This document shows, piece by piece, positions 49,871 through 64,000 of a DNA stretch of 64,000 bases. How positions within the stretch are numbered: the first letter of the stretch is position 1; the number at the start of each line of letters is the position of its first letter. The translations under genes were made by a program, and so were the position numbers. The notes under the pieces are model-generated. The model saw only the letters and a list, made by a program, of their open reading frames with translations. It did no database searches and was not told the DNA's origin. This DNA is from Girardia tigrina (taxonomy: Eukaryota): contig MQRK01193570.1 of NCBI GenBank assembly GCA_001938485.1, positions 1-64,000 on the forward strand, given 5' to 3'.

Positions 49871-50229
49871 CATGATTTTGTTGAATTAACTTTATATATG
49901 CTATGAACAAGTTGATTACTTGTAACCACTTTATTTTATATATTCTTTACATATTCTATTTATATGTTATGCCGAATTCGTGAATTAGGCAAAAAAATTA
50001 CCGAATTCGTGAAATCGGCAACAGTCTGCTAAATAGTGTAATTGCCGAATTTATGAACTAGTCAATTTTTGCTGAATTAACTAACTATATGAAAAATTTT
50101 CATTTTAAAATGAAAATTTCTCAATTTAAAGTGAAAGATTATGTACTTATTATGAAAAAATATCAATTTTATATGAAAAAAATCAATTTTCTATGAAAAA
50201 TATGAATTTCATTTGAAAATGGGTATTTA

Positions 50230-51522
50230 TGTGGTGCGATATATAAGTCCTTAGACTCGACAAGAAAGCAAAGTCCAATCAACTTATTTTTTTTCAGAAT
50301 CAGTACATGACATCAAAGTAAATTATTTCTCAATGTATGAGCCGTGTACATCAACAGACTTGCGACAGCGAGTAAAAAGCTCAGAGAACGCTTTTTTGTA
50401 AAAATTGGGAGGCAAAGAATTAAGAATATCAAGGACTTTCTCCTTGAGGACATTAACTGAATGAAAGTGGACACATTTCAAATGTTTCTTTAGGTGTTTA
50501 AACAACGCAAAATCACTTGGAGCTAGGTCAGGACTATAGGGGGGTGGGAAACCAACTGAAAGCCACAGTCATCCACAGCAGTCAAAGTTGCTCGCGAAGT
50601 GTGAATGGGTGCATTGTCTTGAAGGAGCCACAATGAGATCCCTCTTGGCTTCCTACGAGACTTTCTCACATCGCGAAGTAATTCAACATAATACTCACTA
50701 TTCATTGTCAGTCCTCAAGGAAATCAATTTTAATAATGCCATGGGAATCCCAGAACACAGTCAGCATTGCTGCTCACTTGTGCGAGGTGCCGCTTCGAAG
50801 TTTTCGGGGAGCACTTTCACAGGGGAAGCACCACTCAGAAGATTGGCGCTTGCTCTCAGGCACATACAAGCTCCCCGAGGTTTCATCTTTTGTAACGATG
50901 TTGTTGATGAAGCGATCACCATGAATGCGAAGCAACTCCAAATTGGCAGTGCAACACTGCAAACGTTTGTCGTACATTTCACTGGATAGGAATCGGGGAA
51001 CAAAACGTGAACGCAGTTAGCGAATGCCAAATGATTGCAGAATATCATATGTAGAATTGTAGTTGATGGATAGACGCTGTGCAAGTTCACGGATGCTTAT
51101 TTTTCTCTCTTCCGACACGATCTTCATGCAAAAATCACGTTTCCCGGGTAAAATTTCACACGGTCGTCCTGATCTCTCTCCATCAAAAACGGATTTTCGG
51201 CCATGTTTAAAGTCTGATCCAATTATACACTGTTGCACGTGATGGGCAGTGGTCACCGTAAGCTTCCTGCAACTGCTGCAAAATATCGCAGCTTTTAGTA
51301 TTGCGCAGGAGCCGAAATTTTATTATGCTGCGATATTTGACGTTACTGTACATGTCTACAGTAAAAAGTGAAATAATGGCTGTACGCACCACTCACACAC
51401 ACAGGTTGGGTATGGTGAGTCATATTTGTAACCAATGATAACTCATCTATTTATAGTATCAACGGCATATACGTCATAATCTTATTTATCAACGAGTCTA
51501 GGGACTTATGGATCGCACCACG
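50230..51522 (-). mobile_element. Full-length mariner (DD34D), inactive
   Basis: 30-bp TIRs, TA TSD, 1293 bp; ERSGRP, IVTKDET, QDNAPIH, YSPDLAPSDF across frameshifts. Confidence 0.95.
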
Positions 51523-52503
51523 TAATATGAATTAATATTAATTTTACATGAAAAAAAATCAATATTATTTGAAAAAATATAAATTTAATATGAAAAATTC
51601 TGGATTTAATATGACAAAAATATGAGTTTATCATGAAAAATCATCAATTTAATATGAAAAAATATAAATTAAATATGAAAATATTCTTAATTTGTTATGC
51701 AAAATAGACTCCAAATGTTAAATTTTATTTATGGTTAATTAAATTTCTTCCTTCATAGCAAGTTGAATTGCAAACGTTTGTATTTTACAAGTGTTTTTCA
51801 TATTAAATTGATATTTTTTTCGTTTTAAACTGAATTTTCTTATTAAATCGATATTTGTTCAAATTAAATTGATTTTTTCATATTAAACTGATATTTTTCA
51901 AATTAAATACAAAATTTTTCATATAAAATACATATTTTTTCAAATTAAATTTTCAAGTTGATGCAGCTCTTAAACAGTCCACAGGAACTACAAACTGTTG
52001 AGGAAGATATCTCAGCGCAACGGATTCTTTATTTTTATATAGTCATCGTGATGTATGGTTCTTATTAGATAGTTTTTGAAGAGTTTTGACTTGCCTTAAA
52101 TTTATGTTGTGTAATATTCAATCCGGTCAGATCGAAGGTAGAAAAGAAAATATGCATTACTATATTCCTTTTGTAGCGCATATGTTAAAAAAGTGTAAAA
52201 TTCATATTTTAGCAAAATTAGCAATAATAAAATATTCAGTATAATTTGTTTTTTATTTAATTTGTAAAACTTAATATTTCTTTTTGTGTAATTTTTATAC
52301 TTCCCTTTGCTTATTAGGACCAAATACCTTATACTTTAATCGAAATAGTTCAATAATTACTATTTCTTTTTATTAAATGTAATTTAACGGACAATTTATA
52401 AAATTTTTTTATTGTTTTTTATTGGATTTATTGAATGTAAAAGTCTAGAACAAGATGTTTTTGTAAAGAATGAAGTTTGGTTAGATAAAAAAATATTTAG
52501 GAT

Positions 52504-52964: not shown

Positions 52965-54612
52965 AGGACCGTAAAGGATTTTTCGGGTCACCAGTTTCTT
53001 ATATAAATGAAATCATTTTTGTTATTAATTTATTGAGTTCTAATATAAAAAAAATAAAAGCACTGTTTTTTATTAACATAGATATATTCAAGGAATATAG
53101 CCATGAAATTTATAATTGGACCTCTCACAACCTAGAGTCGGCCCTGATTATATTGTCAAGTTTATTTATTGTTTTATTAAATATTATGATAAGTTTAGAA
53201 AATATTAATTATTTGTTAAAAGATTAATTTGCAATATGTTTTATATTATTAATTAGTCGCAAAAGTTTGTGACCCTGCGATCTGTCCGTAGAATAACAAT
53301 TTGTATAATTTTAAGTATTATAATGAAAAATAATATTATATTATAATTTTTTATCATAGAATAACTTCAGAGAATATTATTTTAGTTTTAGGAATTTTCT
53401 GGTATAAGTTATAATTGCTAACAAAAAAAGCTTTTAAGTTTTTCTTATTACAATTTTATAAAATATCTTTTGTATTAATTAAAATTAATTATTGATATGA
53501 ACTTTTATAAACTATTAATATTAATTTTCCTGGATTATCTGAAAATGAAGATTGTACTTATCATGAATAATAAGAAAATGTTTGAATGACACTTCCTAAA
53601 ATAATTTATCAGATCTTATTTTAAAGAGGGAGAAAGTCGAATGTTATTAGTACAAATTGCCCCTTCGTATATTGCATATAAGATTTATAAATAAATAAAT
53701 AAATAAAGTGTACTGTAAAGACCACTTAGTCGTCTAGATTTTATTTGTACCGAAATTTCGATAATTTCTTCAGAAAAAGAATAAAATTTACAGAAATCAG
53801 GAATGAGTTTTTCATCTAAGATGTTTTTTCAAAGTGCCAAATAATATTTAAATTTCTTTTATTATTATTATTTTTCAAAAAATGATCATATTTATTATTA
53901 CTAATTCCAATGAAGTATGAAATGAATGCCTCATAATCTTAATTTGTTACGTGGTACAAAATTCTGTTTCATTTGACATTATTTTAAAATAAAAAAAGAA
54001 AAAAATATTTCTATTTACGTGATAACGAGAAAATTTCCGTAGGCTACCTCCCTAAAAAGTGTACAATGAAAGCCAAAAGTATGTATTTCTCAGGCATGTC
54101 ATAGAGGTTATCGGAACAAGCTACTTTACCACATAGCCTCCATCATTCTCAGCGCAAACATTCCACCATCTAATTATGTGGAAGAAGGCTCTTTTATACC
54201 AGTCAGTGGGCTTTTTGATAAGGAATGAGGTCACTGTTTGCATAACTTCTTCTTTATCTGCAGACCGTTTAACTTTTAGATGCTTCTTCAGGTGGTAGAA
54301 CATGAAGAAATCGCTTATAATAAGACCTAGATTGTATGGAAAATGAGAAAGCTCCACGAATTAACTTCACTGAACAGCAGTCTTGGTCAAATGGACTTGT
54401 GCACGGGTGAGGTTGTCATACAGGTGTCTTCTACAACACGCATGTAGTATACGCCTTTGATTTTGGTGGCTTTGTCATTGAAATCAGTGTCAACAACACA
54501 ACTTGAATTTCAAAAATCGTCCTCATTGCTTCTTGCCACTGAGAGAATCTAATCCGTAATTTTCTCCTGGCAGTTTTCATTCACTTGTAAATTTTCCATC
54601 TTCTTAAATGTA

Positions 54613-55839
54613 CAGGGTGGGCCAGAAGTTCCTACGACTTTTGGCAAACATCAACAAGTCAACAAATAACAAGACTTTTATTCAACAACTGTTCAACGAC
54701 CAAATGGATCAACTTGTTGTCCATTATGGTCAATACATAATTGCATGCGTCTGAATGTGCGATCATGAATAGCTTGCAATGTTGACGTGTTAATGTGATT
54801 AATTTCCTGTGTGATGATGTCTTTGAGTTCTTCCTTTGTGCGAAATTTTGCTGACACGACATTCGGCTTTAGCATTCCCCACATGGCGTTGTCGCAGGAG
54901 CTTAAGTCTGGGCTTCTTGCAGGCCAGGAAATTGATCCATACTTTCCCACCTACCGATCGAAAATTTGGCATTGAGGAAATCTCGGGTAGCAGTCGCGGT
55001 ATGAGCTGGAGCTCCGTCTTGTTGAAAGTGACAGGATTAAAGCAGGTGTCGTTCTTCTAATGCTGGTAAAAATTCCGTACTCAGCATTTCAATGTAAGCA
55101 TTGGCCGTTACCGAGCCGTTGATGTAGAAGGGTCCAATGATGTACTTAGCATTCATTACAACCCATGCCATTGCAGATATAGGATGCTGGGCAACTTGCT
55201 CATAAAAGTAGGGATTTTCTTTGCTCCAGAAGATCGAATTGATGTGTTTACCATCCCCATAAAAGACACATTCATCTGTGAAAAACAAATTTTCACGCTT
55301 TCGGGGATTGTTGTATTTATGAAGGATGGCTTTTCAACACTGGAATCGGTTTTCTCTGTCAGCCTCTCTGAGAAATTGCACTTGGAATGGTTTCCAGGCC
55401 CGTAAACACAAATCATCTTTCAATATTCGCCGCAGACTTGTTCATGGAATACTCGTTTCTTCTACTCTTTTCCTGGTAGACATTTGATGATCATCATTGA
55501 CGGATTGTTCGACAACTTGCACAGAATCTCCACACTCGGTAGGGCGATCTGCTCGTGGATTATCTAACACGGAACCCGTCCCGAACAACTTCTCCATCCA
55601 CGGGGTAATGATTCTTCCATCGGGCGGTTCACAATCATAACATTCTCTCAGCTTTGCTTTAACTGCTCGCATAGCCTTGTTCGACTTGTCCGATTCGTAC
55701 AGCCATGCTGCTGCTTGCACTCGAAATGGAATTGAATAGGGGCNNNNNNNNNNNNNNNNNNNNNNNNNNNNNNNNNNNNNNNNNNNNNNNNNNNNNNNNN
55801 NNNNNNNNNNNNNNNNNNNNNNNNNNNNNNNNNNNNNNN

Positions 55840-55880
<41 letters not shown>

Positions 55881-55921
55881 TGATGTTTGCCAAAATTCGT
55901 AGGAACTTCTGGCCCACCCTG
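54613..55921 (-). mobile_element. Tc1/mariner DD41D (rosa/Visitor-type) element, inactive
   Basis: 43-bp TIRs CAGGGTGGGCCAGAAGTTCCTACGA..., TA TSD; FFTDEC, FQQDGAPAH...WPARSPDLSSCD with 41-residue spacing after correcting one frameshift. Confidence 0.92.
55744..55839. other. Assembly gap (96 N) next to a (TA)n tract (55840-55876)
   Basis: Run of N. Confidence 1.
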
Positions 55922-55999
55922 TAGTGTGGGAGTGATGTTTCAGCCTCTGTTTCCAAATTATACATGAATAGAGCACCAGTTTCAGAATTAACGTTGAGG

Positions 56000-56183
56000 A
56001 GTAGGGGGAAAATGCGAGTTCGGTCTCAATCGATAATTTTTCGATCTCAATCGATAATCTTGATTACCATGGAAACGGACCACGGTAACCAATGAAATTG
56101 CTCGGTTTCTATGGAAATCGGTACAGTAACCAATGAAAACGCGTCTGTAACCATAGTTAAATGATAGTTATGTATTAACGACC
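56000..56183 (+). repeat. Polinton left TIR (the part matched on the right)
   Basis: Inverted match to 59614-59805, roughly 90% identical with a 9-bp indel. Confidence 0.95.
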
Positions 56184-56387
56184 TCACCCTCCCGGGAGGT
56201 GGTCGAAATCTCATAACGTTGCGATGGGTTACCAGTTGCCATAGCAACGGATATAGTTTACGCAACGTGGTGAGGTCTATTTCAAGGTCGCGATTACCAT
56301 AGCAACGGTCCAGATCACCTTATCCTAGGCAAAAACGGTAGCCAAGGTCGTAATCACCATAGCAACAGTTTTGGTTACCTTAGCAAC
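56063..56387. promoter_or_regulatory. Array of RFX X-box-like 14-mers in the Polinton left arm
   Basis: GTTGCCATAGCAAC 56235, GTTACCTTAGCAAC 56374, ATTACCATAGCAAC 56293, ATCACCATAGCAAC 56353, ATTACCATGGAAAC 56063, GTTTCTATGGAAAT 56105. Confidence 0.5.
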
Positions 56388-56390
56388 GGT

Positions 56391-57182
56391 TTATTTATTC
56401 CATAAAGATGGATATTCCAAATCGATAGTTGAAAAATTAACTTGTGAAACTGTCGATAAATTAATTAAATCGGAAAATGAAAATGAAAAATCAAATACAA
56501 TAAATAGCGAAAAAATCAAAAATTAGATAAATAATAATTATGATAATATTGATTTTGTTTTGACTGTTCCCTATTCTGAGGGTTTCAGGAAATTCAAAAC
56601 CTCTATTTTGAAACATGATGAAAATAAATCATTAAATTTAAAAATTGTATCTAGGTCATGTAAGATAAGAAGTTTGTTAGTAGTAAATTTATCACACCAA
56701 CTGGGTTATGTTCCAATTTAGTTTATCAATATAAATGTAATGGGTATGATGTCATATACATCCGAGAGACTTTTCGTCATCTCTGTAAACGGATTCAGGA
56801 ACATAATCGCAGGGAAAGTGATAGCAATATTGCTCAATATAAGAAGAACTGTTTGAATAGTAAAGTTGATGTAAGTAATTTTAAGATTTTATGTTCACAA
56901 TTTGATAATTATTGGGAGATAATTATTGTGAAGCATTGTTGATCAAATCTTTTGATCCTAAAATCAATGTCCAAACACAATCCTCTTCAACTTTGTTGAA
57001 AGTATTTTCATGATTTAAATGACACAATGATTACATAAACATTACTTTGATATATAAACGCGAGTATATCATTGTTAATTCAGTCTGATGATGATCCGTC
57101 GAAATTAATAACAATATATTTTGACGAAAATTTTTGTTTTTTAAAAATTCCTTGTCGTCATTTTTTAAATATTTATATAAAT
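56391..57182 (+). mobile_element. 5'-truncated Penelope-like element inserted in the Polinton
   Basis: DGYSKSIV...LTVPYSEG...LVYQYKCNGYDVIYIRETFRHLCKRIQEH...EALLIKSFDPKINVQ; homology to the 3192-3905 copy stops near 57182. Confidence 0.88.
57077..57120 (+). ncRNA. Degenerate minimal hammerhead (7-nt deletion in stem II)
   Basis: agt CTGATGA tgatccgtc GAAA ttaa TA^ac; same family as 3254-3305. Confidence 0.65.
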
Positions 57183-57871
57183 CAAATCATGTTTTTATTG
57201 CTTCATTCAAAAATGATAAGGAAGCTCAAGAATGGGGTTTCATTACGGAACATAATTATACGAAAACTAGAGAAAAGGAATTTATAGTAAAATCCTCTAA
57301 TGAACTTTTAGAAAAAGATGTTTTGAATACAACGGTTTCCATAAAATTTAATATCGTTAATGGTCTCAATTGGGAAACATTTGTATTTAAAGAGGATATA
57401 AATCAAAACAGTTGTGAGAAAGTTGAAAGTCATCTCAAAACTTCAAAAAGTATTCAAAACCATCAAATTGGAAGAAAATAATATCCTATCATTTACATTC
57501 CAAAATTGTGTACAGAAAGCTGTTTTTGATAAACATTTGGTTTTATGTTTTACAAAAACCGAATTCAATCTCAAAGATGATAAAGGCATATTCCCAATAA
57601 AATTAAATAATCCCTTCAATCAGATATACATCTATTCTAGTATTGTAGAGATCGAGTACCTCTTTTAAAATGTGTTTGGATAGATTTTTCATAACATAAG
57701 CATGGAGAGCCAGTATATTTTGCACCAGCTGTTCCCATGTATTTATCTATTTCATCCACATGTTTAAACAAAATTGAAGTTAATATTCGTGATGATAGTG
57801 GGAGACCTTTTGAGATTAGTTTTGGAGCAAAAACTATATTAACTTTACATTTCAAGAAAATACATGATTGA
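57183..57871 (+). pseudogene. Polinton minor capsid protein (penton/PX), 5'-truncated and frameshifted
   Basis: IYIYSSIVE...PLLKCV...PMYLSI...KIEVNIRDDSGRPFEISFGAKTILTLHFKK matches the Maverick minor-capsid C-terminus. Confidence 0.8.
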
Positions 57872-58253
57872 TAGAGATATTGTACAATTGTATTGTGTTC
57901 CTCTACAGGGTGGTAATCTTCCACACTTTAGAGGTAAACAATATGGAGGTAATTGGAAGGCTACATTAGGCAGATATGCAATTCCTATAATGAGGAAATT
58001 TGGTATACCTGTAGCAAAGATTGCTGGTAAAGCAATATTAAGTGCTGGTGAAAATATTTTGAATCGTACTAAAAAGCTTGTTGAAGCATTGAAGGAAGCT
58101 GCTGCGGAGATATTACCAGAAATGAAGTCAAATGCTAAAGGTACTTTTCGTGAGGCCGTTTCCATAATGGATCAAGGTGGAGGAGGAAGGAAAAGGAAAA
58201 GTTTAGATATAAACAAAGAAACAAAACGTATGAAAACGATATTCTCAGAATGA
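57864..58253 (+). CDS. Intact Polinton virion core/membrane-lytic-type protein (129 aa) with adenain-type cleavage sites
   Basis: LQGG^N and QYGG^N, then a basic amphipathic segment, then QGGGG-RKRK; lies between minor and major capsid genes. Confidence 0.7.
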   Translation: MIDRDIVQLYCVPLQGGNLPHFRGKQYGGNWKATLGRYAIPIMRKFGIPVAKIAGKAILSAGENILNRTKKLVEALKEAAAEILPEMKSNAKGTFREAVSIMDQGGGGRKRKSLDINKETKRMKTIFSE

Positions 58254-59357
58254 GTGCTTCATCAGAATTGGACATATTTAGTCCAGCTCCGCCACAAGCT
58301 TTTATAGAATTATATACTTTTGAAGATATTTACCCCAAGGATAGTATTAGTGGGTATAATAAATCTCATATAGAGTTAAATATTATCGGTAGTGAAGATC
58401 AATACATTGATATGAATCATATAATGGTTAGCATTAAAATAAAAGCAGTCGATGAATCAGGAAAATAAATAACTGTTGACATTGCAAAATTAACACCGAG
58501 TAATTACCTATTTCATTGCTTATTTAAAGATATGACCTTGTTTCTCAATAATACAAAGATTGAGGACACTAATGATAGTTATTATCAAAAAGCTATCATT
58601 GAAACTACATTAAATTTAAGTTCATATACGAAGAATACGTTTCTCAAGTCCATGGGGTATGGTGAGGCAACTGAAAGAGTCAAATGGTTGCAGAAATCAG
58701 CCTTGATGACATTACGTGGACCGTTAAATCTGGACTTTTTTGAGCAGCCTAAATATCTCATATCAAATATATATTGAGAGTGCAAAGTTATTAATACGAC
58801 GTTTTCGTACAACAGAATCAGTAAGATTGGCTCATATTATGGGTCTTGATAATCAAAATGCTATATATCCCATTCGAAAAGCAAGAATGTTTCAGTTTTC
58901 AATTCCTAAAGGATCACATGGTGAATACAAGGACAATCTGTTCAGTGATGTACGTTTACAAAAATTTGTATTGGTAACATTTCAAGATAGTAACAAAGTT
59001 AGTGGAGATTACACATCATATTGCTCGGCATTTGACAACTGTAATATTAGCTCCCTAACCCTATCTCGAAGAATTGATTATAGAGATTCACATATAATTA
59101 ACTTTGAAAAGAATGATTTTACTGAAGCATACTACAAGTCTATAATATTGAACATGATACTCGTGAATAAAAATATGAATAATGGAATCACTATGGATGA
59201 TTTCAAAACAAAATACCCCTACTTTACATTTTTCTTGGCACCTGATTTTGATGTTGATCAAATACAAATGCCACGAACAGGCAATTTGAAATTGGATTTA
59301 AGATTCCATAAGGCATTAGATAACGCAATAATAAACAGGAATTACAAACAGCAATAA
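58250..59357 (+). pseudogene. Polinton major capsid protein (double jelly-roll, PY/hexon-like)
   Basis: SELDIFSPAPPQ, IELNIIGSEDQYIDM, PSNYLFHCLF, GPLNLDFFEQPKYL, LAH..GL...NAIYPI, GNLKLDLRF; in-frame stop at 58466 and frameshift/deletion near 58775. Confidence 0.9.
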
Positions 59358-59398
59358 TATATGAAGTAAGTTTTATTTAAACCTTTGGTAATTTTATA

Positions 59399-59613
59399 AT
59401 ATATAGTACATATCAGATTGAAAAAGCACTGAAAAGATATCCTGGATTCCATGGAGTATATTCGTTGGATAAAGTTCCAGATTATCTATTTGATGGAGGA
59501 TATATAATTAATACTCAGACTGCTAATTTACTAGGAGAACACTGGATTGCAGGACATGTGACTTCAGATTTTATTCGAGTATTCGATCCACTTGGGATGT
59601 ATTACCCATCACG
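59399..59613 (+). pseudogene. Polinton adenain/Ulp1-like cysteine protease, C-terminally truncated
   Basis: FHGVYSLDKVP...YIINTQTANLLGEHWIA...VFDPLG; His and Asp present, catalytic Cys segment replaced by the TIR. Confidence 0.88.
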
Positions 59614-59805
59614 GTCGGTGACACATAACTATCCTTTAACTATGGTTACACACATATTTTCATTAGTTTCTGTACCAATTTCCATAGTAACCGAGCAATT
59701 CCCTTGGTTACCGTGGTCAGTTGCCATGGTTTCTATGGTAATCAAGATTATCGATTGCGATCGAAAATTTATCGATTGAGACCGAACCCGCATTTTCCCC
59801 CTACT
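59614..59805 (-). repeat. Polinton right TIR
   Basis: Inverted match to 56000-56183. Confidence 0.95.
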
Positions 59806-60679
59806 TTGAGGGTCTTTCCCTGCACTAGAAATAGCTTCTTAATCATATCCGCTTTGAGAAAGTAATATACGAACCACGACCATAATTCTCTTAGTCCCAG
59901 AGAAGGAAACATGCTATTCAATGTTCTATAGTTGTTTTTGAATACATTTTCAAGTTTTATAATTTCGTTAATTTTGTATGAAATTTTCCAATTATCTCCA
60001 AGAATTTGTCGTCCTCTCCCGTACTTTTCTTCATTGTATAATTTTGTTCCACTGCACTGAAATTCTTTAATCCACTTGTAAGTTAAAGTTCAAGAAAAAG
60101 ACTTTTTACCATAGGGCTCGCTTAGCTCCCACATTATTTCAAAAGGTTCAAATTTGTTTTGAAGCAAAATCTTAGTTACACTGCTCTTTTCAACGTCAGA
60201 TATTATGTTAAATTGAATAATCGCTAAATCTGTCTGACGAAATAGGCAAATGTTAAATCTGTTATAAATTTTTTTTCACATAAAAATTCAGGTTCCTGCG
60301 TTATTAATTAAGCTACCAGTCTACAGACATTGTGAGGCCTCTACTTTATCATAGGAAAATGTAAACTTCGCCGATATTGAAGATCTTTTCAAAATCTTTG
60401 AACAGTGTTTAATTATTACATTTTAAATGTGTGATTTGATGTATTAAACTTTATCTTTTTAAATATAAAATGTTTACAAAATTATAACATCAATTATAAT
60501 TGATCTATAAATGATAGTAATAGGAAAAAAACGTGAACTTAAAACTGTAATATTTTTATAGTATGTAATAAATATCTAATAATTCTCTAACTTTAGACAT
60601 GGAAAAATATTTTTAGGGGTCTCGCTATTAGAATGAAATAAAAAAAAACAAAGTAAAAGATATTCAAATACTGATTCAT

Positions 60680-61035
60680 TGCTCCAATATTTTTGTAAAA
60701 TATGCAGTCAGTGTTAAGTAATGCCTGTAGAAACAAAGAGAGGAAAAATTAAACAAGATATTTAGCATTAAGAAAGAGTTAGATGGATTCACATGGTAGA
60801 AAAATTAATACTCGTACATCGGAGAGACAAATCGTCATCTCAAAACACGGATTAGTGAACACTCACATTCAAGTAGATTGAGTATGATTCTTGAAATAAA
60901 AATGTGAGGAGAACTTCTGATAACAACAATGGCATAAACGTGACTAAGAAAAAAAAATAAAAATCAAATAATCAACACAAATAAAGTTACTGAAGATGAT
61001 CAAAGATTGTGATCAAAACATGTCCAACGTTAATT
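60680..61035 (+). mobile_element. Penelope-like GIY-YIG fragment and 3' repeat, second family
   Basis: LQYFCKIC...[16 protein letters not shown] followed by a hammerhead motif. Confidence 0.75.
60984..61031 (+). ncRNA. Minimal hammerhead with a G12-to-A core mutation
   Basis: gtta CTGAAGA T GATCA aagattg TGATC aAAA catg TC^ caac. Confidence 0.65.
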
Positions 61036-61159: not shown

Positions 61160-64000
61160 TGGGATCGGATATATGACGTCCGTATGGATACATATCTTCA
61201 CCCTCTCGATGCGTCCTCGCCGCGATCCTGGATACCCAACTAAATTCAAGAGGGGGTGCTCTCAGCTAGGTCTAGCAATCCATGAGTAGGCACTTAATCA
61301 ATGATGTTACTAAACAAATAGACAGCACAAAGAATACTGGGATTGCTCGTAAAAGAATAGGATCTCAGTCTAAGTGGGGACCGGACTGGTATTCCCCTAG
61401 GCGGGACTGGTGGTTGGGTTTGAAGAAGGTTTGTACATGGAATGTTCGGGGGTTCGACGATCAGAAAGTCTTGAGTGTTACTGACGTTCTAGAAAAGCTA
61501 AATGTAGATGTAGCCATCCTGACGGAAACACAAAAATTGGACGTCGTGACTGAGAATTATGAAAAGTGGACCTTTTACAACACTGGGCCACAAATGGGAC
61601 CAATTAGGGAAAGAGGAGTTGGTTTATTAACCAGACTACCTAAAGGTGATATCGAGTTTGAGGCATTTTCGGATCGAATTTTCAGAGTGAACATCATTTC
61701 CTTCAGAATAATTATCGTAGGAATGTACTCTCCTACTGACTGTGGATACAGTGACAGCTAGAAAACCACATTCAATGACTCTCTAAACACCGTGGTTGGA
61801 AAAGCAGAGGCAGAAGCTAGGCACCCCGGGTGCATGTAGGTTGTGGTAGGAGACTTCAATTGTCACATACACTTTGACGGAGAAAACCAAGTACCCAGCG
61901 TCGGAAAGTATGCACACATGTCTGATAATGGGGAAAGGTTAGTATTACTAGCTGAAGAGAAAGGTATGAATGTAGTAAACTCCTTTTTTTGCCATAATGA
62001 GTTAAAAAGCACCAGCTGGATCCACCCGGCGACGAAGAGGAGGGAGCTATTGGATTTCTTTCTTGTGTGTTCAGAAAATATGAACATAATCAAAGATGTA
62101 CAATCTAAGCATCTTTATGACTGTGGATCCGATCACGATTGCGTAGTCTTATATATAAAAACAAAAAGATATAAGACAGCTAGTACGAAATGGAAGCCGA
62201 AAAAAGAATTGCCTAAAAGCATTCAGAGAGATCTTGTAACTCGTGACCGCGAATATTTGTCGTTCAAGCTTCAGCGAACTATTTGGGAAGCAGGACCAGG
62301 ATGGGAAAACACAGTGAAAGTTAATACAACACTACTGGACAAGTACCGGAAGGTCATAAGGACACGTCTAAAGGGAAACTGGTTACATAGTCACACAACT
62401 AAACTAAGTCATCTCATAAACGAAAAGAGTCACCACAGAAAGAAATGGATATTGCACCCTTCCATAGAAAATCTGCAGTGCTGGAGAACCGCAGGAAACA
62501 AGGTAACCTATTCCATTTGTAGATGGAAGCGAGAAAGATTGATCAATCTCAGTAATGAGATTGAACAAAGTTTAAATGTTGGAAACTTCAAGAAGAAAGG
62601 TGTGGCTTACCTAGAATTGCGTATGCTGGGGAATCCAGAAACGAAAATACATACGCTTTCTACGCCTGTGCCATCAGTCTCTAATAGTCAGACGGAAAGT
62701 CATTATCAGAAGTTCTTCGAAGCACACACACTTATTGAGTGCGTGGATATGATTCGATTCCCTGAGGAAATTTGTATCGGTATAGATCCACCAAACACAG
62801 AAGAGGTAATGGGAAGGCACCCGGCTCAAATGGGGTTATTGCGGATGTTTTAAAATGGGGCGGACAACCCCTCATTGACAAACTGAAGCTCGATTTTGAG
62901 ATGATTTGGAACGGGGATGATCATCAGTTCCCAAAGGCTTGGAGGAGTGCAAAAGGGGTAACACTCTTCAAGGGAAAGGATGCAAGGTCTGATCCGAATA
63001 ATTATAGAGGGATATTCCTCTTGTGGAAGTCACCGGCAAAGGTTTTGCACGAATAATTGTAAATAGAATGACGCCGGCGATGGAAGAAAGGTTAGACCCT
63101 TGACAGTTTGGTTTTCGACCGAAAAGAGGTACTATGCAACTATAAAGATACTCAGGCGGATACAGGAAGAAGGTCGATATAAGAACCAGAAGGTATTTGT
63201 GATATTCATCGATTTGGAAAAGGCATTTGATAGTGTCCCACCTGAAGTTCTGTGGACCTGCCTGAAAAGATTCGGCTTGAACGATAAAATTCTCTATCTG
63301 ATCAAGAAATTCCATCAGAGCTCTATTGTCTTTGTGGGGGATTGTGAGTTTCTCATGGAAAGATGTGTCAGACAGGGATGTGTGATGGACCTTGTCTTTT
63401 TAACTTGGACTTCAATGAAGTTATCAAAACGGTGATACTGAAAGGATTCGGGAGAGGAATTACATGAATCGACCATCATAATGACGAATTTCAAGTCAAT
63501 AGACTTGCTTATGTGGATTATCTATGTATTGACATTGATCGTGAGAGTAAAACCCTGGATAAACTTAGAAGTACATTTTCAGAATTCGGGTTGACTATTA
63601 GTGCATCTAAGACGACAGTCATGTGCCTAACTGATGACTCGGGGACTGAAATATCGCTAGTGATGTGTGGTGACAAAATCATAAAATGGGTGAGCGAGTT
63701 TTGTTACCTCGGTAGTATACGGACCGCATGTGGTAGCTGCAGTTGAGATATCGATCAGCAGTTGCGTTTTGGAATGATTAATTTACGATAATTGCAGCCT
63801 GCAATTCAAAGTAACAGAGTTCCTATAGCACTGATAAGAGCACTAAGCTAATCAAGCATTTTTCCAGCAGTGTATTATGGGAGTGAGTACTGGGCAACAC
63901 CTGAAAAAGAGGTAGCCCGGCTACAAAATTTTCATAATACCTGCACATGCACTGCTCTTGGTAAAACTAAACTTGACAGAATACGTAATACGGTTATGTC
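61160..64000 (+). mobile_element. RTE-like LINE (APE endonuclease and RT), inactive, runs off the window end
   Basis: TWNVRG, LTETQ, GVGLL, VGDFN, CGSDH, KAPGSNG, NYRGI, FIDLEKAFDSV, VRQGC, LAYVD, FCYLGS; several stops and frameshifts; 5' boundary approximate. Confidence 0.92.

Follow-up and report, generated by a model that had tools for sequence, protein, structure and literature searches.

A 3.8-kb Polinton-like copy in Girardia tigrina (positions 56,000 to 59,805 of the window, the 64,000-nucleotide stretch of contig MQRK01193570.1 that was analysed) is, by its junctions and gene content, a deleted and dead copy of a 9-kb element, type A, that decayed in place. Type A encodes virion proteins, an ATPase and an integrase without a polymerase. 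It likely spread with a protein-primed polymerase (pPolB) provided in trans, most likely from type B, a 9-kb element with the same ends that carries pPolB only and that likely used the integrase and capsids of A. The 3.8-kb copy itself represents ordinary decay; the surprise is its parent family.

The copy starts with AGTAG at 56000, ends with the reverse complement of AGTAG at 59805, and is flanked by an exact 6-bp target-site duplication (TSD), TTGAGG (Table 1). The arms of its terminal inverted repeats (TIRs) align over 184 of 193 bases with 85.5% identity and one 9-base gap, and are about 90% alike when only substitutions are counted. The initial annotation, which described this TSD and AGTAG-ended TIRs about 10% diverged, was thus accurate as to the duplication, the ends and the substitutions, but both TIRs are partial, with 391 bases on the left and 193 on the right of a family TIR of about 1 kb or more. 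The left TIR belongs to a variant that has an additional outer segment and is shared by A and B copies. TIR divergence was dropped as an insertion date, because parts of the two arms within individual family members agree at anywhere from 76% to 99%. The insert that had been proposed as Penelope-type is real and probably of that type: it belongs to a high-copy repeat (at least 40 copies scored, 91-93% identity), a longer copy of which encodes a GIY-YIG-like domain (Pfam E 0.0016, below the cut-off). Four transposase-like frames nearby gave zero Pfam matches.

Table 1 Features of the 3.8-kb copy and its flanks (window positions)
Feature	Position	Strand	Basis
Left target-site duplication TTGAGG	55994..55999		Comparison of ends and TSD
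Left TIR, outer 391 bases, AGTAG end	56000..56391	+	Arm alignment, family TIR comparison
Probable Penelope-type retroelement, 5'-truncated, GIY-YIG-like end	56393..57178	+	High-copy repeat, domain of a longer copy
Likely minor capsid gene, 5' part missing, three short deletions	57174..57871	+	Gene order
Likely core protein, open 136-codon frame	57843..58253	+	Basic C-terminus, position between minor and major capsid; putative function
Double jelly-roll major capsid gene, dead	58250..59329	+	Fold of family copy
Adenain-type protease gene, C-terminal third cut off by right deletion	59332..59623	+	Pfam matches of homologues
Right TIR, outer 193 bases; microhomology of about 11 bases to protease	59613..59805	-	Arm alignment, family TIR comparison
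Right target-site duplication TTGAGG	59806..59811		Comparison of ends and TSD

Genes for minor capsid, core, major capsid and protease all lie on the forward strand in one orientation, with 89-96% identity to the virion block of a full family copy (L068). A Pfam search of 12 window frames returned nothing below E 0.01, a sequence search among solved structures gave no significant match for the capsid or the protease, and no relative of the element was found in a viral contig collection. The capsid fold predicted from a single sequence was unreliable (pLDDT 30.8). Folded with 114 homologues, the major capsid protein of L068 is a double jelly-roll (pLDDT 94.8), and Foldseek matched this model to the capsids of iridovirus, PBCV-1, Sputnik and mavirus (best E 2.2e-16). 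The window gene is 92-96% identical to that family gene and is interrupted by a stop codon in frame near 58466 and by deletions near 58765 and near 59330. The family's own protease protein had zero Pfam matches, and the window gene is cut short; among six protease homologues scanned, one had Peptidase_C5 above the cut-off, with P0159 (46% identity) matching at E 1.2e-7 and three more giving weaker matches. His-Trp and Cys columns are conserved across the homologues. Pfam searches gave no family match for the minor capsid or the core frame, and these identities are likely ones, based on gene order and, for the minor capsid, a single jelly-roll protein in Polintons, on an Atlas lead to a Sputnik V18/19 cluster at 0.95, flagged weak, which fits the gene position. 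The initial annotation had described a dead Polinton with a co-oriented virion block, and had proposed structure prediction as a check. Its Polinton identity is upheld by the ends, TSD, double jelly-roll capsid and adenain-type protease, and the death of the copy by the capsid stop and deletions and the three short deletions in the minor capsid gene. It also recognised no PolB, integrase or ATPase in the 3.8 kb, and none is present there.

Type A elements are about 9.0 kb long and encode ATPase, integrase, capsids and protease. The full copy L068 spans 9045 bases with one 50-base gap, and its flanks agree at 5 of 6 positions. The lineage A integrase matches rve at E 7.6e-13 and the ATPase matches Pox_A32 at E 2.2e-6. 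On the outer side of the first ORF, 24 of 30 A loci have TIR-derived DNA, and 26 of 30 have it beyond the last ORF. At these 30 loci PolB directly adjoined the A ORF block at 0 of 60 junctions, in surveys made with A and B queries and the best 40 matches, which missed lineage M (below) entirely and could miss other joined forms. Contigs with both A and PolB DNA (L059, L174/L334) were rejected as joined elements and read as nested or adjacent insertions, as a TIR end lies between the two. On the evidence of its junctions, lineage A lacked PolB while amplifying.

Type B elements are also about 9.0 kb long, consist of pPolB between TIRs of 1.7 kb or longer, and integrate with exact TSDs. One copy (L252) runs for 8992 bases between host flanks, with no gap and an exact TSD, and another (L255) is 7749 bases with an exact TSD. 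The 3.8-kb copy and the A and B copies alike have AGTAG-type ends, and among ten both-ended elements of these kinds the TSD was exact in six, matched at 5/6 positions in three and at 4/6 in one. A genes were present beyond the PolB flanks at 1 of 90 loci. In one locus, L281, B is joined to a fragment of an A ATPase. Some B copies have an o2-like relic beside PolB (78% over 116 bases). It was rejected as a record of a head-to-head ancestor on two grounds: in M, PolB follows the capsid block in the same orientation, and the relic may flank PolB on one side or the other. Neither the 3.8-kb copy nor A or B was found to carry pPolB and integrase on one element.

The gene sets of A and B are complementary and their termini match, with the outer ~1 kb of the TIR in common at 77-85% identity. 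They form separate star-like clades of similar age, with mean pairwise identities of 0.93-0.94 in A and 0.90-0.95 in B, where many counted copies are partial and the A or B label is by sequence clade. Third codon positions are enriched among shared variants relative to singletons in A genes (120/247 versus 617/1928, nominal p 5e-7) and in the PolB of B (201/302 versus 344/959, nominal p 1e-20), p-values being nominal as copies are not independent. No such enrichment was seen in a TIR control, and none was significant for the ATPase, minor capsid or last ORF taken singly.

A third lineage, M, has the capsid block joined to PolB and the same ends as A and B. The last A-type ORF runs into the PolB 5' region in 32 of 40 scored contigs, and three scaffolds tie M to the same termini across gaps. 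M is set apart in a tree of 41 non-M and 16 M rows (split support 100/100) and in a PolB tree (3 M rows versus 32 others, 100/99). It is abundant in the assembly, surviving only as 1-2-kb fragments, and no M integrase was seen on a fragment with PolB and the capsid block. Mean pairwise identity is 0.97, and the M copies that can be seen mostly postdate A and B. An older M-like copy (L370) is 90% identical to L335, indicating that M-type elements predate the young M burst. These joined contigs suggest that M is a monopartite-type sister that may be a helper to either half.

We propose that one monopartite ancestor gave rise to A and B, which would have complemented each other through shared terminal origins and integration sites. 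That both are 9 kb, B being filled out by its long TIRs, would be explained by packaging into a common capsid. The split is probably facultative, since M has the same termini and may have acted as helper to A or to B. A further step, tentative and somewhat short of an even chance, is that A and B make up the bipartite genome of an integrating double jelly-roll dsDNA polintovirus, A as the virion/integration segment and B as the replication segment, both padded to about 9 kb, with an unsplit sister preserved alongside. A strict two-part virus is weakened because M, as L335 and the PolB-joined contigs revealed, joins the capsid block to PolB with the same ends.

A and B could instead be two independent defective families, each mobilised by M or its ancestors and complementary only on paper, which is possible though the less favoured account. 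The termini, abundance and older copy of M are consistent with such a mobiliser, deletion derivatives are common in this Polinton family, and B could in principle replicate itself as a linear-plasmid-like replicon needing only integrase in trans. However, A and B are exact complements of near equal size (9045 versus 8992 bases) and age with TIR variants in common, and most visible M copies are younger than both. A also kept selection on its capsid, core, protease and integrase genes, for which a pure parasite of M would have no use.

With respect to the 3.8-kb copy, the initial annotation had offered in-place decay or spread in trans of the capsid-only form. The left deletion, which reached from the remainder of the TIR through two small ORFs, ATPase, a further ORF and integrase into the start of the minor capsid gene, is bounded by the Penelope ends (0-5 bases from both breakpoints, no duplication), and the right joint between protease and TIR sits on the microhomology. 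None of the 40 scored candidates spans the protease/TIR junction in a second copy, and exact and 3-mismatch patterns of it matched only this locus. Decay in place follows from this unique microhomology junction and from the left deletion ending at the Penelope ends. An A copy would have integrated at TTGAGG, after which the left deletion would have been caused by, or replaced with, the Penelope insertion; the right part would have gone by microhomology-mediated deletion, and both events would have happened in place. That the 3.8-kb form was itself copied and inserted in trans, for instance as a defective genome that arose in replication, is very unlikely and largely refuted, although a one-off right deletion may have preceded integration. 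The copy does keep both termini and an exact TSD, and short both-ended derivatives exist elsewhere (L056, 3832 bases, exact TSD, same TIR variant; L055, 569 bases, gene-less). But its junction is unique to one locus, a host retroelement bounds its left deletion, L056 and other derivatives have different breakpoints, and the same internal junction was not found at several loci with different TSDs. The sole shared deletion (L006-L009) lies on contigs 100% identical over 3450 bases, probably assembly redundancy. Simple deletion had been expected to go with a unique junction and full-length relatives; the junction is unique, but the relatives are not all full length. The 13 other internal A deletions found differ from this copy in their breakpoints. 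The trans idea holds one level up, for the 9-kb parent, because lineage A amplified without PolB and the genome also has both a PolB-only B with matching ends and the monopartite M.

The least probable explanation is that A and B are short-read artefacts of full-length Polintons broken or collapsed at long repeats, as the fragmented assembly (255,254 contigs, many gaps) and the 1-2-kb M pieces might suggest, but L252 has no gap and sits in host DNA with an exact TSD, the A and B junctions are repeated across dozens of contigs that differ by 5-10%, and the A and B clades, distinct from M, are not pieces of M.

Internally deleted, non-autonomous or MITE-like Polinton derivatives keep both ends. 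Unlike these, the 3.8-kb copy is not amplified, and the amplified A, in contrast to gene-less non-autonomous elements, retains virion and integrase genes that seem to be under selection. The family shares with Polintons/Mavericks (polintoviruses, animal adintoviruses) long TIRs, a 6-bp TSD, an rve integrase with chromodomain, an A32-like ATPase, a double jelly-roll capsid, an adenain-type protease and a pPolB with an Endonuclease VII/HNH-type insert. It differs in that PolB and integrase are on separate 9-kb elements, B TIRs reach 1.7 kb or more, and the 3.8-kb copy has neither gene. Polintons are reported as 13-25 kb with TIRs of 100-1500 bp (10.1101/2023.08.22.554363), and those of vertebrates as 12.7-24.6 kb (PMC8097293).

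Matching termini are described for the VD1/VD2 segments of the bidnavirus Bombyx mori bidensovirus (PMC8502044), bidnavirus segments of 6.5 and 6 kb are described as packed separately (PMC4061559), and up to twelve segments with similar terminal repeats are given for Drosophila Vesanto virus (PMC8363768). The elements here resemble bidnaviruses in matching-end segments and a polinton-derived PolB. Bidnaviridae have an ssDNA genome, a parvovirus-type capsid and a superfamily 3 helicase, whereas here the capsid is a double jelly-roll in a set with protease and A32-like NTPase, both halves integrate and are flanked by 6-bp TSDs, and PolB has a segment to itself. A bidnavirus-like state would also lack a monopartite form, and here an M-type lineage with the same ends is present. 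Type A was also present in four public sequencing runs, whose depths were taken neither as copy number nor as expression; 16 further runs listed as having it were left out. The killer/helper linear plasmids of Kluyveromyces lactis each have their own PolB and are not known to integrate. They are further different in being cytosolic and having no capsid. The pair is described as two protein-primed replicons of 9 kb and 13 kb, one aiding the other (PMC13348850).

Our literature search for a split Polinton found none. PolB and integrase together are given as the definition of a Polinton (PMC5499653), and a published search filter called for five proteins within 20 kb (10.1101/2023.08.22.554363). 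With all core genes, or these two, sought on one element, split families would escape notice or be recorded as debris. Polinton particles are reported as not observed (PMC8097293), and the amplification of a polymerase-less lineage with selection on capsid, core and protease is indirect evidence that virion genes work during spread. The presence of split and unsplit sisters in one genome allows sequence-based tests of how segmented DNA viruses originated. If true, a bipartite polintovirus would record how a lineage of dsDNA viruses first came to have a segmented genome, in parallel with the route proposed for bidnaviruses.

The 3.8-kb Polinton-like element in the window (the window copy) carries AGTAG-type ends and the same six bases on either side, confirming the initial annotation's reading of a virus-like element with both termini and a target-site duplication (TSD). 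Its terminal inverted repeat (TIR) arms are 85.5% alike over 193 aligned columns, with a single 9-base gap. Since Pfam searches of the window's own frames gave no useful match, gene identities were checked in the natural open frames of other copies. The major capsid protein of L068, a copy of the parent lineage (type A), has 3767 relatives at E <= 0.001. Folded with 114 relatives it reached a pLDDT of 94.8, and structure comparison matched the model to the double jelly-roll capsids of an iridovirus, PBCV-1, Sputnik, and mavirus. Peptidase_C5 matches occur among the protease homologues, above the cut-off in one of six; the double jelly-roll and adenain-type identities are borne out in the family. 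The minor capsid and core assignments are putative, following gene order and one weak lead from the Atlas. The internal repeat is likely a Penelope insert, based on 40 scored copies at 91-93% and a sub-threshold GIY-YIG match in a longer copy. The window copy is dead, as had been proposed: a stop and two deletions interrupt the capsid gene, three short deletions the minor capsid gene, and the last third of the protease gene is missing. Its left-hand neighbour, Tc1/mariner-like in appearance, gave no Pfam match for its transposase-like frames.

Positions and contents of family elements and of other features in the window
Locus	Position	Feature
Window	50227-51525	Second element; 33-base inverted ends, mariner-like frames; flanking 21-base AT-rich tandem repeat
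Window	54611-55923	Element with inverted ends of 45 bases (98%) and transposase-like frames; ends ~70 bases left of the Polinton copy
Window	~55744-55839	N gap inside the preceding element
Window	56000-59805	Window copy, AGTAG-type ends, TTGAGG on either side; left TIR (391 bases), repeat, four co-oriented virus-like genes, right TIR (193 bases)
Window	56393-57178	Repeat in the window copy, likely Penelope
Window	60815-60861	Fragment with 77% similarity to the Penelope-type insert
Window	61276-63746	Disrupted LINE; has endonuclease and reverse transcriptase domains
L068		TIR, two small ORFs, A32-like ATPase, ORF, rve integrase with chromodomain, minor capsid, core, major capsid, protease, last ORF, TIR
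L056	2023-5854	Both-ended type A deletion derivative, own breakpoints
L298	3184-9839	As L056
L301	293-5314	As L056
L305	5359-9567	As L056
L055	672-1240	Gene-less 569-base element: two family TIR ends and exact TSD
L078	3-6255	Tandemly duplicated minor capsid region
L252	6900-7650	Module of unknown 187-codon frame and relic of A's second ORF
L281	2750-3406	Chimeric or nested A/B locus

The 3.8-kb form had been read either as a lineage mobilised in trans or as a product of decay in place. Spread in trans is contradicted by its protease/TIR junction: a 201-base query across it retrieved 39 other contigs among 40 scored, all ending on the protease side, and searches with an exact gapped pattern and with one allowing 3 mismatches matched the window locus alone. 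About 11 similar bases are present at the joint in the protease and TIR of other copies, so the right deletion is consistent with a microhomology-mediated event. On the left, TIR base 391 adjoins the insert start and the insert end meets the minor capsid gene midway, with no duplication. Because the insert abuts both breakpoints, the simplest reading is a single event for deletion and insertion, or recombination between two inserts. The unique junction, the microhomology, and the insert-bounded left deletion make decay in place very probable; the window copy is real, but an ordinary case of decay. Among A-type loci, 13 further internal deletions (from a list in which paired entries overlap at one place) all have different breakpoints. 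One deletion found in four contigs, 100% identical over 3450 bases, was not taken as evidence of spread. The family decays mainly through large internal deletions.

The window copy was assigned to type A by its similarity to L068 (89-96%, versus 77-91% to L335 of the sister lineage M). L068 is 9045 bases long, with one internal 50-base gap and flanks alike at five of six bases, and has no PolB. Each survey of type A ends covered 30 of the 40 best-scored contigs, the query's own locus among them. Outward of the left end, 24 of 30 loci have TIR-derived DNA, five have less than 300 bases of flank, and one has other DNA (right end: 26, two, and two of 30). PolB directly adjoined A ends in none of these 30 left-end and 30 right-end loci; the PolB piece in L174 sits outward of A's own TIR end. 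The minor capsid duplication recurs as joints in public runs X1, X3, and X10. In X3, a high-depth contig runs from integrase straight into core, skipping the minor capsid gene. The entire A interior is covered in runs X1, X3, X9, and X10, which bear the labels of three different organisms and a freshwater metagenome, with a variant ~86-90% alike in each.

Pfam searching of the genome yielded 93 pPolB matches, several of them next to the type A TIR. These include a polymerase-only lineage (type B), represented by L252 (8992 bases, gap-free, TIRs of ~1.7 kb) and L255 (7749 bases), both with pPolB and exact TSDs; sister copies have an Endonuclease VII-type insert. B inner repeat or TIR follows the PolB 3' end in 29 of 30 loci and precedes the 5' end in 28/30 and 18/30 loci of two B subtypes, while A genes occur in one (L281) of these 90 loci. 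A and B have 77-85% similarity over the outer 1 kb of the TIR, and both carry the TIR variant of the window copy. As B has no integrase yet exact TSDs, it was presumably integrated in trans, unless every exact-TSD copy is a later deletion, which the repeated junctions argue against. The module listed for L252 (also L289, L291, L294, L331) is found on either side of PolB, upstream or downstream depending on the B copy, and B TIR length varies, as if through copy-back or inversion. Further chimeric or nested A/B loci are L334, L059, and L297, and two A copies with B-type inner TIRs (L180, L185) hint at exchange between types.

Lineage M (L335; L336-L370), of monopartite type and seen in small fragments only, none of them covering its left half, has the capsid block, a ~300-base spacer, and then PolB, co-oriented. 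L335, on public metagenome contig JACCDN010195927.1, is 84% alike to A, and its last ORF runs on into the PolB 5' region. In the Girardia tigrina genome itself, 32 of the 40 contigs scored span this junction, which the surveys of A and B missed because they ranked by similarity. Three scaffolds link M to the same termini across gaps, and M copies are ~97% alike over the last ORF. In the last-ORF tree 16 M rows stand apart from 41 others (support 100/100), as do three from 32 in the PolB-piece tree (100/99). From this separation, A and B are lineages of their own and not separate deletions of M. B and M are candidates for the suggested partner with the same TIR; M's integrase and ATPase were found on no piece that carries PolB. 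A high-depth variant in public runs, 86-90% alike and covering both genes, fits a complete M without proving it. At least one other Polinton family, without similarity to A genes at the DNA level, carries capsid-like or ATPase genes next to pPolB on a single piece (L117/L118, L122, L124, L125).

Averaged over pairs of copies, identity is 0.93-0.94 in A genes, 0.90-0.95 in B PolB, and 0.97 in the M last ORF. Single-copy variants are spread evenly over codon positions, as neutral decay predicts. Variants in at least three copies fall more often on third positions, in A (seven stretches; 120/247 versus 617/1928 single-copy) and in B (four stretches; 201/302 versus 344/959). Taken one by one, major capsid (p 0.015), integrase (0.006), core (0.0002), and protease (0.03) are enriched, as are three of the four PolB stretches; ATPase, minor capsid, last ORF, and the TIR control show no enrichment. 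The p-values are nominal because copies are related. Similarity also served to assign partial copies. The bias among shared variants suggests that the source elements of A and B had working genes after the split.

Polymerases of the pPolB type, as described in PMC11071308 and PMC4061559, have a fused terminal protein and prime at TIR ends. B would supply polymerase for any molecule with these ends, and A would supply integrase, ATPase, capsids, and protease, both integrating with 6-bp TSDs. The near-equal sizes of A and B, the latter largely repeat, would fit a packaging size preference, with the caveat that M would be several kb longer. We consider the whole account, a decayed A copy and A/B complementation, likely. 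The presence of M limits the two-part claim, and a genuine two-segment virus made up of A and B, as opposed to two elements that both depend on M, is put forward tentatively.

A, B, and the window copy have Polinton parts but not the defining pairing of PolB with integrase. The A/B organisation resembles that of bidnaviruses, whose two separately packed segments have matching termini (PMC8502044 and PMC4061559), and that of Vesanto virus (PMC8363768), but those are ssDNA viruses. No split or polymerase-less amplified Polinton was found in the full-text literature searched; family annotations in Repbase and most subscription journals, outside this scope, could anticipate A or B. An anole study reports no non-autonomous Polintons (PMC3014272), and a Dugesia study a Maverick expansion without structural detail (10.64898/2025.12.11.693146). 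Behind the window copy stands a Polinton family whose three lineages, one polymerase-less, one polymerase-only, and one joined, have their ends in common.
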